Positions 18,023 to 59,137 of a stretch of DNA of 64,000 nucleotides are shown here, piece after piece. Source of the DNA: Octopus vulgaris (Eukaryota); assembly GCA_951406725.2 (NCBI GenBank), contig OX597818.1, forward strand, positions 4,588,001 to 4,652,000. The letters are read 5' to 3'. The position numbers and the translations under genes are program-made. The notes below the pieces were generated by a model. That model was not told the DNA's origin and searched no databases. It saw only the letters and a program-made list of their open reading frames with translations. Position 1 is the first letter of the stretch, and every line of letters starts with the position of its first letter.

Positions 18023-18384
18023 TATATAATATTAATTAGAGACAAAACCACTATTATGCAAATCAAACAAAGAAAGACTTAATCCAATACATAAAAAAAT
18101 TTATATAAATTAAATAAAATTAAATTCGCCACTACAATTGTTTCGTGTCTCTTCTAAGGGCATTCATCAGGTGGTATTCAGATCTTCTATTCAATTTTAA
18201 GTTATGAAGACTTCATAACTTAAAATTGAATAGAAGATCTGAATACCACCTGATGAATGCCCTTAGAAGAGACACGAAACAATTGTAGTGGCGAATTTAA
18301 TTTTATTTAATTTATATAAAATTTTTTATGTATTGGATTAAGTCTTTCTTTGTTTGATTTGCATAATAGTGGTTTTGTCTCTAA

Positions 18385-19893: not shown

Positions 19894-19894
<1 letters not shown>

Positions 19895-20544
19895 AGCAAT
19901 AATTAATCTCTGAACGAGGTATAAACAGTAGATGCACAACAATGTGAAGTATATTTGCAACTTAAATGTGGCTAACCACTAAGGGTGGATGTTACTGTAG
20001 CTTGTAGGCCCAGGAGAACATCTTCTCCAACTGGCTATTGACACACTTTCTGTGCCCTATCAGTACTTGCAAAGAGAAACCGTCCTTCCCATAGACCTGA
20101 CGTGATATGTACGGACCCGGGGCTACAAGCTACAATAGCATCCACACTTAGTGGTTAGTCACATTTAAGTGGCAAATATACTTCACATTGTGGTGCAGCT
20201 ACTGTCTATACCTCGTTCTGAGATTAATTATTGCTTGTTTACACTTTTTCTAGATCAGTGACTTTTCGTCACTGGAAAAAGGAGATATGTATTTGCATTG
20301 GGACCCCTTAGCATCGCAGACCGGTGATTGTCATGCGCTGACGACGGGTAAATAACCAGAAACTCGGCCCCGTGGGTATTACGTCAGGTTGGCGATGGGA
20401 AGGATGGCTTCCCCTTGCAAATACTGATAGGACAGAGAAAGTGTGTCAATAGCCAGTTGGAGAAGATGTTCTCCTGGGGCTACAAGCTACAGTAGCATCC
20501 ACCCTTAATGGTTAGCTACATTTAAGTTGCAAATATACTTCACA
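19894..20544 (+). mobile_element. retrozyme-like element A: 357-bp monomer (1.2 copies) plus an upstream inverted partial copy
   Basis: ggggctacaagctac recurs at 20119 and 20476. 19894-20120 is an inverted copy. A decayed HHR at 20332-20374 reads CTGACGA-cgggtaaataacca-GAAAC-TCG-GCC. Confidence 0.7.
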
Positions 20545-42860: not shown

Positions 42861-43699
42861 TGTCTCCCTTAGACCGCTATTCGGAATCTACACACACAGA
42901 CACATTCTATATGTTGGGAATTTACTAACTCAAAGGTCCTGTCAAATAGTATTTGATCATCCTGTCAGCACTCCATCTATATATTCTGTTGATCAAAACA
43001 TGCATTAATGTCAGTAGAAATTCCATTTGCTATCATTTTGAGTCTGTAACTTTGAGCAATATCATCTAAGTTTTTTCTTTCTATTTCACCTACCACACCT
43101 GGTGCTGTTATTAATTGTGTCTCTTGATGATTTCAAGTTCAAGGTCAGACAACCATCTACTCTCTTGAATTGCTCTTATCTCGTCACAAATCCTCTTTGT
43201 TCACTATACATTCTCTGCCGATAAACTCTTACTAGAATTCCATTTTCCTTAACCAAGTTGCTCAAATAGCAGCACTCCATAAAAACAGTGTTTACCTATT
43301 TATTTCAACTCTATTGCTTTTCAGGGCTAGCGGTAACTGGATTATGATCAGATCTGCACTTCTGCACAGTGGGGTACTTGTTAGATGAAACATCTTCACC
43401 TCCGGTTCCAATAACATTTATGCTGTTACTTGAATTATTTGCTTCATTCTCTTAAAGAGCTTTTCTTCCTATGAGTTTTACTTCCTGTCACCAGAAGGGC
43501 ACCGAGTAAGGCTAAAGACTCCTTCCTGGAAATGAGACTTGCCTTAATCTTGCCAGATGCCAGCACGGTATTTTATGGTCATGGGGTAAATTATTATTAT
43601 TATTATTATTATTATTCACATACACACAACAGATTAAACTGTTGGAAAAGAAAAGAAAATTCCTAACATCGGGCTACAACAGAGTAACCTTAGATGTTA

Positions 43700-51430: not shown

Positions 51431-51507
51431 GCCCACATAGCTCAGTTGGTAGAGCATCAGACTCTTATGTAGTTGAGTGATGAAATCTGAGGGTCTCTCT
51501 GTGGGCA
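51431..51507 (+). pseudogene. tRNA-Lys(CTT)-like pseudogene or SINE head with a 17-nt intron-like insert and no T-arm
   Basis: gcccacatagctcagttggtagagcatcagact-CTT-a[tgtagttgagtgatgaa]atctgagggtc..gtgggca. The acceptor, D and anticodon stems pair. Confidence 0.6.
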
Positions 51508-51718: not shown

Positions 51719-53420
51719 AACTCATGCTACTAACCATGAGCTATAAAAAAAAACTTTTTCAGCTTATTGAACTTTGATATGGGAAAAAGCCTACAACCTT
51801 TACCAATAAATTATTATTGTTCCTGAACATTGTTTTTTGTACATTGCTCGAAGCTTATAAACTTCATACACTTAGATCCTTGGAGCTTATAATTACATAT
51901 ATATATATGCACACACACACATATATACATACATGTACACAAATGTTTATGGCTGTAAATGTATACATTTATAAATAATGTATATATTTCACTGCTTTGT
52001 TCTATATATATATATATAAAACAAAGTGCATGTATGTAAAGAATGTGCTTGTTCTATGCATGCTGTACCAGGTGGCTGTTTCCAGTAAGTATTCCTAGGG
52101 ATCTGCTCAGGGTACTACTTACCACTGTCCACCTTCTTTGATACCAATGCCATATACATACATATATATTGTTCAAATTTATAGAAAAAGACAAAGGTGT
52201 AGGAACAACATATGTATACACACACACACACACACACATGATACAAATAAGAAAATGATATTTTTTAAAATACAGAGTTGCCATTAGAATAGCAGAAATA
52301 CTGGGTTAACTACCATTAGAAGGTGCAAAAATTTGTCAATAACCAGCCATGGGACTTGAACCCACATTCCTCAAAGACTGGCTAAGTGGTTTACCATTAA
52401 GCAGCAACTCCACATTCGAAAAAGTATCATCTTCTTATTTGTATTGTACAATACACATTTTGATGCTTAAAAAAAAAACTCCAAATATTTGTTTGTTTAC
52501 ATTTATACACACATGGTTGTTCTATAAAGCTAAAAGTATTTAGCGTCTATATTTAGCGTCCAACCCATGCTAGCATGGAAAGCGGACGTTAAACGATGAT
52601 GATGATTTGGTGGTCATTTTGTCAGTGAGCAGTTTAGCTTAATATGGTAAAGCACTCAACTGGAGTCTTTGAGGGATATAGGTTTGAGTCCCATAGTTGG
52701 TTGTATGCATATGCATACATATATATTATTTATATTATTATTTGATTGAACGCCACACATCCATTTCCAAGTAAGTTTATTTTAATCTTTTTGATGCGAC
52801 TCTGTTCTCTCCCCCTATCGTTTTCTCTCTCATCCTTGCTCCTTTTCACCATTTTCTATCTATCTCTCTCTCTCTCCCCTTCTTTCTTCTTTCTCTCTCA
52901 TTGCTCACACATGACCATCGTCCATCTTTCTTTTCCGCATGATCATCTTTCTTTTGTTTCAGGGCTGTCTTAGAGGCTGGACATATCCTATCTATCTCTC
53001 TCTTCAATCTTTTCTCTTGTCAAAGAAAATATTTCTCCACCATTTGCTATTTTACCCTCATTCTGGTCTAATGACCCTCCATGTTTGTTTTCGTCTGCTT
53101 TCCTTGTATGTCTCCACTGTCTTGTTTTTGTTTCCAACTTGACCCTCCATAAATCCCAAATTTTATTTTGATATTTGTGGGAGCAACTGCGTTCGAAGAG
53201 TCATATTGTCGTTCAATGCTTGAAATGAGTAGTAGATAGGCAGTTGACAACTGATGAAGGGTCATCCTTTATGTAACTTGTCCTGTTTTCCATTTGTTTC
53301 TCATGTTGTTTGTGTATTCAACTCATTTGTTTTCGTATTTCATGTTGTTTTCTGTTTGTAACGTCCTGTACCCATATATGCCTATATATATATATATATA
53401 GATATATTTATATATATATA

Positions 53421-58577: not shown

Positions 58578-59137
58578 TTGTTCGAAGGTTTATAATGGAC
58601 GCAGTTTGTGTGTCAAATAGCTAGCTTAAGGCGATGGCCTCATGGAGCTAATCAGCGACAGCTTTAGTCTTATATTTATAAGACTGCCATATTAGTATGG
58701 CAATAACTATTAATTTCCAGTAATGCTGCCGTAATCTCCTTTAGAGAGACTTAGTAATTTTAATATTTCTATTATTGAAAACAAGTGGATGTATTCCATT
58801 GAAACTAGGTAAATAAAGCCTTCGAACTGGGACGATCAGTAGCGACACCTGCAAGTCTGACTACGCTGCATTGATAAGGGGCAACAACCCTGAAACGTCT
58901 GTAGCTGTCTGACTGGCAGGATGAAGCGGCTGACCTCCCTTGTTCGAAGGTTTATAATGGACGCAGTTTGTGTGTCAAATAGCTAGCTTAAGGCGATGGC
59001 CTCATGGAGCTAATCAGCGACAGCTTTAGTCTTATATTTATAAGACTGCCATATTAGTATGGCGATAACTATTAATTTCCAGTAACGCTGCCGTAATCTC
59101 CTTTAGAGAGACTTAGTAATTTTAATATTTCTATTAT
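58578..59137 (+). mobile_element. retrozyme-like element B: 362-bp monomer (1.55 copies), nested in a PLE-type terminal repeat (58410-59907)
   Basis: 58578-58775 is repeated at 58940-59137 with 2 substitutions. The spacer holds the HHR, and the monomer has many hairpins. Confidence 0.8.
58865..58905 (+). ncRNA. minimal hammerhead motif, U3:A8 variant, apparently intact
   Basis: gctgca-TTGATAA-gggg(caacaa)ccct-GAAAC-GTC-tgtagc. Stem I extends outward (cctgc..agtc..gac / gtc..gact..gcagg). Confidence 0.8.

Follow-up and report, generated by a model that had tools for sequence, protein, structure and literature searches.

A conserved, covarying 3′ RNA domain in octopus hammerhead retrozymes and its possible role in Penelope-type reverse transcription

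Metazoan retrozymes that lack long terminal repeats (non-LTR retrozymes) are non-coding repeats with one type I hammerhead ribozyme each. They form thousands of dispersed copies and short tandems and co-exist with autonomous Penelope-like elements (PLEs); the accessible text of the reports on them describes no conserved structure beyond the hammerhead and calls their sequences species-specific (PMC7229834; bioRxiv 10.64898/2026.07.22.740005). Here we analyze two families of such elements, A and B, in a 64,000-nt stretch of the Octopus vulgaris genome (contig OX597818.1, positions 4,588,001 to 4,652,000; the window). The families fit non-LTR retrozymes in all these traits, with hammerhead cleavage and expression predicted, and have units of 340–365 bp, compared with 350–390 bp for the mussel repeats. 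Beyond what that text describes, they carry a 3′ domain that is conserved by covariation, among families 60–85% alike, and tied to two 3′ ends. Retrozymes and their link to PLEs are already known. Of a conserved 3′ domain tied to start sites we found no account in a literature search that was thin on subscription papers and repeat databases.

PLEs show partial tandems, inverted 5′ copies, an optional tail of 30–40 bp and a bias toward microsatellites, and their reverse transcriptases (RTs) are sisters to TERT, according to the accessible part of PMC8557442. The protein of an anole PLE (PAc, a Poseidon element of Anolis carolinensis) requires RNA +20 to +172, around and after the hammerhead. 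Its two internal start sites, of which the first is in a stem-loop, lie 3′ of the ribozyme and give the genomic tail; the accessible text defines no binding structure (PMC11167929). The retrozymes analyzed here likewise have two putative starts 3′ of the hammerhead and an optional tail, and the RNA that PAc requires is situated between hammerhead and starts. PAc differs in being autonomous, with a required region that overlaps its open reading frame (ORF), and starts lie ~85–150 nt after the cut in PAc but ~175 and 220–240 nt after it here; the two systems are likened by description, not by sequence.

The covarying 3′ RNA domain

The first-pass annotation of the window had proposed a shared RNA motif at 20441 (family A) and at 58608 and 58970 (family B). 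All three sequences were located, together with a fourth, inverted copy of family A at 20046 (−); a leader-pattern search of the window gave four matches where 100 shuffles predict 0.00. The motif lies 70 nt 3′ of the predicted hammerhead cut in both families (cuts after 20370 and 58899), as had been stated, and the monomers, put at ~360 bp, measure 357 bp (A) and 362 bp (B). That the rest of the monomers barely align proved wrong. Blastn found no match between A and B; a gapped local alignment is colinear over ~290 nt (20257–20539 with 58784–59070), with a score of 114 that none of 1000 shuffles reaches (61 ± 8). The motif is thus common to both families by descent of whole monomers.

At least 11 hammerhead retrozyme families, A and B among them, form a radiation that carries the motif. 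Their compensatory changes bear out the proposal of an unnamed, conserved, covarying cis-acting RNA structure, for which Rfam holds no match. The motif is a predicted hairpin, P2, that forms one arm of a larger conserved and covarying 3′ domain composed of P1, P2, P4 and the long-range helix P5. The unit drawn at first pass was therefore real but too small. In its general form, established from 21 rows, P2 consists of a 4-bp stem, a 2–3 nt bulge, a C-G pair with a U·U opposition (in most families), a stem of 5–8 bp and a variable loop. In family A (20451–20481, + strand) the bulge has 2 nt and the inner stem 6 bp; the family B hairpin (58981–59011, +) contains one A·C mismatch. Compensatory changes arose in separate lineages, from C-G to U-A in B and from G-C to A-U in Y, and several more occurred in the inner stem (H, K, B, I, G, C3/C4). 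The C-G/U-A change first noticed in the outer stem is genuine, although the outer T-A pair is broken in 6 of 19 rows. Its GATG loop is no conserved signal: loops differ in sequence and length among the 21 representatives, and the likeness of A and B reflects descent only.

The gtgtgtcaa leader, taken at first pass as part of the motif, falls outside the P2 stem. Its gtgtgtca belongs to the upstream hairpin P1, of which gtgtc is the 3′ arm, and is rewritten in family Y with pairing retained. P1 is found at 20431–20447 (+) in family A, with two substitutions in this copy, and at 58960–58976 (+) in family B. A short, conserved A-rich linker joins P2 to P5 in all families. P5 is a helix of 7–9 bp whose 3′ arm lies within the optional tail. 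In the family A copy only its 5′ arm (20490–20496, +) is present, the tail being absent, and P4 (20515–20530, +) is degenerate; in family B the P5 domain (59018–59093, +) is complete, its arms (59018–59024 and 59087–59093) enclosing P4 (59048–59063) and end site 1 (~59076).

All four helices covary. Among 19 rows, six of them without tails, P1 is paired to 91%, P2 to 92% and P4 to 83%, and five of ten P2 pairs show double changes; P5, in 18 tailed rows, is 97.6% paired, against 10–58% in slid controls. Sixteen copies of the most distant families, including X and Y, pair in 91.3% of cells (slid controls, 29–51%), with 15 of 26 pairs double-changed. None of 500 shuffles scored as high, a count that is not a probability, since the structure was derived from these same, related rows. 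P5 in this set is 98.2% paired with six of seven pairs double-changed, and P2 84% paired, MAFFT having misaligned the rows of G and X. Where only one side of a pair changes, the result is a G-U pair, and this assigns the structure to the strand of the hammerhead.

Energy folds of five whole tandem monomers (families H, X, G2 and B, the last including locus L054) recovered the helices in H, X and one B copy, where a rod extending hammerhead stem I ends in a multi-way junction that holds them. Four other candidates were rejected. A pseudoknot between the P2 bulge and downstream AGCT words showed no covariation by eye; hairpin P3 (identity 0.27) shows covariation in B and C, but G and Y lack it; helix P6 is 74% paired with zero double changes; and a first RNAalifold consensus, which paired P1 letters with distant partners, was superseded once more families were aligned.

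Alternatively, P2 may have no specific role and survive from a common ancestor under nothing more than general selection for a compact self-paired circle. The families are homologous along their whole length, retrozyme circles are as a rule highly paired (PMC7229834), and the motif alone (52–54 nt) has ordinary stability, with z-scores of −2.0 (A) and −0.6 (B) and 8 and 51 of 200 shuffles folding as well. Yet mean identity over eight lineages is 0.64 for P2 and P4 and 0.59 for P1 and the hammerhead core, compared with 0.27–0.42 for the spacers and long rod; the rod, which is equally paired, reaches 0.34–0.42. The unpaired internal loop and the linker are also retained in most of the 21 rows, and a P2 without a specific role appears unlikely.

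A second alternative is that the conserved letters act at the DNA level as an internal promoter, A-box-like for RNA polymerase III (Pol III) or of the small nuclear RNA (snRNA) type, with pairing secondary. In A, B and C, P2 is similar to the familiar consensus of the tRNA A box in its 5′ half. Most families (20280–20290 and equivalents) also conserve an A-run and then a TATA-like word ~110 nt 5′ of the cut; these may be a promoter or only part of the long rod. Schistosome and newt hammerhead satellites have internal Pol III and snRNA-type promoters (PMC2220036). Families G, I, X and Y, however, alter the A-box-like letters yet keep the pairing, double changes and G-U wobbles indicate that selection acts on the RNA, six of six loci lack a tRNA-like fold, and no B box was seen downstream. 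We regard the promoter as very unlikely.

Retrozyme families and their hammerheads

In the 2.8-Gb genome assembly, first-look searches gave 2994 candidates for family A and 2456 for family B. Further pattern searches returned 1541, 3807 and 4628 matches compared with 0, 5 and 0 in the control; the broadest pattern, which excluded A and B, gave 13,784 against 6, with some places counted twice. Clustering of 67 hammerhead-bearing segments (out of 145) yielded nine families and one deletion variant, 60–85% alike, and model R1 added the distant families X and Y, which lie next to autonomous elements and both have hammerheads. Seventeen representatives can be aligned from upstream of the hammerhead through P4. 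The units are non-coding, within 150–450 bp, dispersed and tandem, with multimers such as those at L256 and L257, and each has a type I hammerhead with a conserved core and three helices.

Both window hammerheads have a short palindromic stem III. In family A (core with stems II and III, 20338–20370, +) the cleavage triplet is mutated relative to 13 other aligned copies; the family B core (58871–58899, +), with a predicted cut after 58899, is a U3-A8 variant of a kind already described (PMC4209133, accessible part). Rfam hammerhead models give these variants no score. Family X, which is young and has 2691 candidates, mostly carries C for U at core position 4 (L282, L286–L289, L350, L358, L360); its abundance suggests that cleavage may be weak or dispensable. 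Elsewhere in the window, one hammerhead-like core stands on both strands ~80 nt apart, at 18170 (−) and 18250 (+), and is likely another inverted PLE-type end. Family B was also found in sequencing runs of four organisms, all DNA or untyped and none recorded as RNA; three of these were available as contigs, and the contigs of one run guessed to be RNA say nothing on expression.

An Rfam scan of the window gave no gathering-level match other than two tRNA-like ones, neither at the motif; these (51431–51507 and 52628–52702) are likely heads of short interspersed elements (SINEs) or pseudo-tRNAs. At E up to 10, three loci returned only sub-threshold chance matches, none fitting P2. The six loci without a tRNA-like fold and the variable A-box-like letters speak against a tRNA-derived SINE, and the motif is no known tail of a SINE or a long interspersed element (LINE) by the Rfam and tRNA-fold tests, which included no repeat-library comparison. 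The window also holds a weak match to model R1 at 43492–43615 (15 bits, E 0.2), either an old copy or chance. In metagenomes the strict motif pattern had no match. Looser patterns gave 11 metagenome matches and 4 and 0 viral ones, none of which model R1 scored, so that we attribute them to chance. The metagenome and viral searches thus did not find the motif outside near kin of this genome.

The same data bear on the suggestion, made at first pass, that the motif is a second catalytic module. P2 would suit all or part of a cleavage or ligation module in that it has a conserved internal loop, sits close to a multi-way junction and belongs to an RNA that already bears a ribozyme. No Rfam family fits, however, the letters of loop and internal loop vary, and neither the 5′ nor the 3′ ends of copies cluster at P2. 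Moreover, the mussel and axolotl retrozymes circularize far better in the presence of RtcB than on their own (PMC7229834). A second ribozyme is highly improbable.

Copy ends, insertion traits and the search for an autonomous partner

Of 175 copies from four families, 20 continue into a following unit. The remaining 155 include 145 whose ends form two clusters, about 68–74 and 112–132 nt after the P2 3′ arm; these counts come from loci picked with queries containing those ends. Site 1 lies within the P5 loop, 12–14 nt after P4; site 2 follows the tail, 45–60 nt further on. The 5′ ends of 93 copies are spread to both sides of the hammerhead cut (47 upstream, 43 downstream, three within 4 nt). 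Since the cut site is not where these ends fall, the copies were likely templated by a circle or by a multimer left uncut.

The copies also show PLE-like traits of mobilization: partial tandems, often with an inverted 5′-truncated copy, an optional tail, which at 45–60 nt exceeds the published 30–40 bp, and ends in microsatellites. The family A locus of the window combines tandem, inverted copy and microsatellite end. An inverted, 5′-truncated copy (19894–20107, −), which contains the motif at 20046 and a tail, ends in (AT)n. It is followed by a 5′-truncated, tailed copy (20116–20233, +; P5 3′ arm at 20198–20204) and by the last copy of the partial tandem (20234–20544, +; unit 357 bp), which ends at site 1 near 20544 within an (AC)n run. 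The family B locus consists of a 5′-truncated copy with a complete 3′ domain (58578–58775, +; motif at 58608) and a 362-bp monomer (58776–59137, +) that ends at site 2 in (AT)n. Microsatellites adjoin 24 of 36 ends in A, 44 of 53 in B and all 26 in X. Family C (L213–L241) has 2 of 30 ends beside a listed microsatellite, with ATG-type units outside the list; its ends rarely abut (AT)n or (AC)n, unlike those of A, B and X, and its partner endonuclease may differ. Family C copies are also concentrated near the start of contig C1.

The genome carries young, intact families that encode an RT and a GIY-YIG endonuclease. We selected 127 loci (35 + 62 + 30) with PLE-type ORFs or GIY-YIG domains; these are the best-scoring candidates, obtained without a Penelope or Poseidon query. 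Not one has the domain in its own 3′ end by model R1, with flanks of 1.5–2.5 kb. Six loci gave strong R1 matches, and these are separate retrozyme insertions (five by reading of the sequence, L338 by strand and place only). Homology to an autonomous PLE pseudo-LTR (pLTR), present in the Xenopus retrozyme case according to the accessible text, was not found in the flanks of the 127 loci, and no PLE ORF is continuous with a retrozyme monomer at the loci examined. Pairs of motifs 2.4–2.5 kb apart, considered as ORF-bearing elements, turned out to be local duplications without an ORF.

From domain order (RT, Zn-finger linker, GIY-YIG) and familiar motifs, rather than from a tree, we take the autonomous elements of this genome to be Neptune-type PLEs. 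Like the retrozymes, they have microsatellite-flanked 3′ ends, optional tails, inverted 5′ copies and, in some families, hammerhead-like cores. They differ in encoding the protein and in lacking P1-P2-P4-P5.

Several of these elements deserve mention. A very young RT-GIY-YIG family (L092:3627–5414, L110–L138) has 73 scored matches, mostly with a 775-amino-acid frame, at 99–100% protein identity over the query. In a 781-amino-acid PLE family (L326, L328, L331, L342, L348, L349) the 3′ untranslated region contains CCAAT-like and TGACGTC words in tandem, with a TATA-like word after them, likely an internal RNA polymerase II promoter array. Another young family (L183–L212; G000:C5:115841777, C1:59393512) has frames of up to 1312 amino acids, a variant hammerhead and two 3′ ends ~57 nt apart, with a tail that pairs back weakly (5 of 100 controls). 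At L030 (~1320) and L013 (~1440–1470), family A stands head to head with inverted, 5′-truncated PLE ORF fragments with no intervening microsatellite, and the rest of the fragment was not found on the far side. These junctions are possibly joint insertions that name a partner, or may be plain insertions into old copies.

The proposed docking and start-positioning structure

Structured cis elements that recruit an RT in trans are familiar from SINE 3′ tails, which are common to the SINEs and their partner LINEs, and from the TERT-binding elements of telomerase RNA. The retrozyme domain would be an element of the same sort. It differs from SINE/LINE tails in that no tail in common with a partner was found and the starts are internal, and it has no sequence or Rfam similarity to telomerase RNA. 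With about even confidence, we propose that the 3′ domain is a cis-acting docking and start-positioning structure for a Penelope-type RT-endonuclease acting in trans. Tandem copies would be transcribed. Hammerheads would cut as dimers and a host ligase would close a circle of 340–365 nt, or else an uncut multimer would be used. A Penelope-type protein would bind the P1-P2-P5 junction, nick AT-rich or microsatellite DNA and begin copying at site 1 or site 2. P2 would be the likeliest protein contact because it keeps its primary sequence and internal loop; no solved structure of a PLE protein was found. RT recognition, one of the roles offered at first pass, therefore still seems the most likely; the genomic ends lie 12–14 nt after P4 and at no fixed distance from P2.

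Several observations weigh against this proposal. The absence of the domain from all 127 autonomous loci is the main one. A helix spanning site 1 in the autonomous elements beat tail-shuffled controls in one of six cases, and weakly (5 of 100). Within the domain, the X group swaps the C-G/U·U element of P2 for C·A/A-U, so that the element is not invariant, and a young family B subfamily tolerates the A·C mismatch in P2. Energy folds of G2 and of another B copy lack P1, and that of G2 also lacks P2a and P5. The relatedness of the rows and the choice of loci, noted above, limit the shuffle and end counts. Finally, site 1 stands at family-dependent distances from P2, shorter in Y and longer in G; P2 is not a ruler for the start site.

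In a different account, P2 (with P1) binds a host RNA-binding protein or stabilizes the circle, while P4/P5 or local AT-rich sequence alone sets the starts. Such a role might serve to protect the RNA from nucleases, export it, keep the hammerhead off or dock it to ribosomes, the last in the manner of Alu with SRP9/14. A domain missing from every autonomous element examined would fit a need special to small non-coding circles, and P2 stands at no fixed distance from site 1. Retrozyme circles are also stable and abundant, with the hammerhead blocked by something other than self-pairing (PMC7229834, accessible part). The P2–P5 linker, present in all families, points the other way: P2 adjoins P5 and P5 encloses the main genomic end, so that together the helices give the impression of a single unit linked to reverse transcription. 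We consider a host-factor or circle-stabilizing role possible but rather doubtful.

If the RT-docking proposal holds, a further, more tentative step can be taken. The retrozymes may own a dedicated, telomerase-RNA-like docking domain that was not copied from a partner end, in which P1-P2 would bind the RT and P5, with the tail, would present an internal template start. In these retrozymes at least, the arrangement of P5 also suggests an identity for the long-known optional PLE "tail": it would be the 3′ arm of a helix enclosing the main start site.

How hammerhead retrozymes obtain an RT and what RNA structure PLE RTs recognize are both open questions. They can be addressed in this genome, which has a natural covariation series spanning more than ten families, two mapped start sites and intact, young elements as candidate partners. 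Should the dedicated docking domain prove real, Penelope-type reverse transcription would have its first defined recognition structure, and the capture of an RT in trans by circular ribozyme RNAs would be explained.
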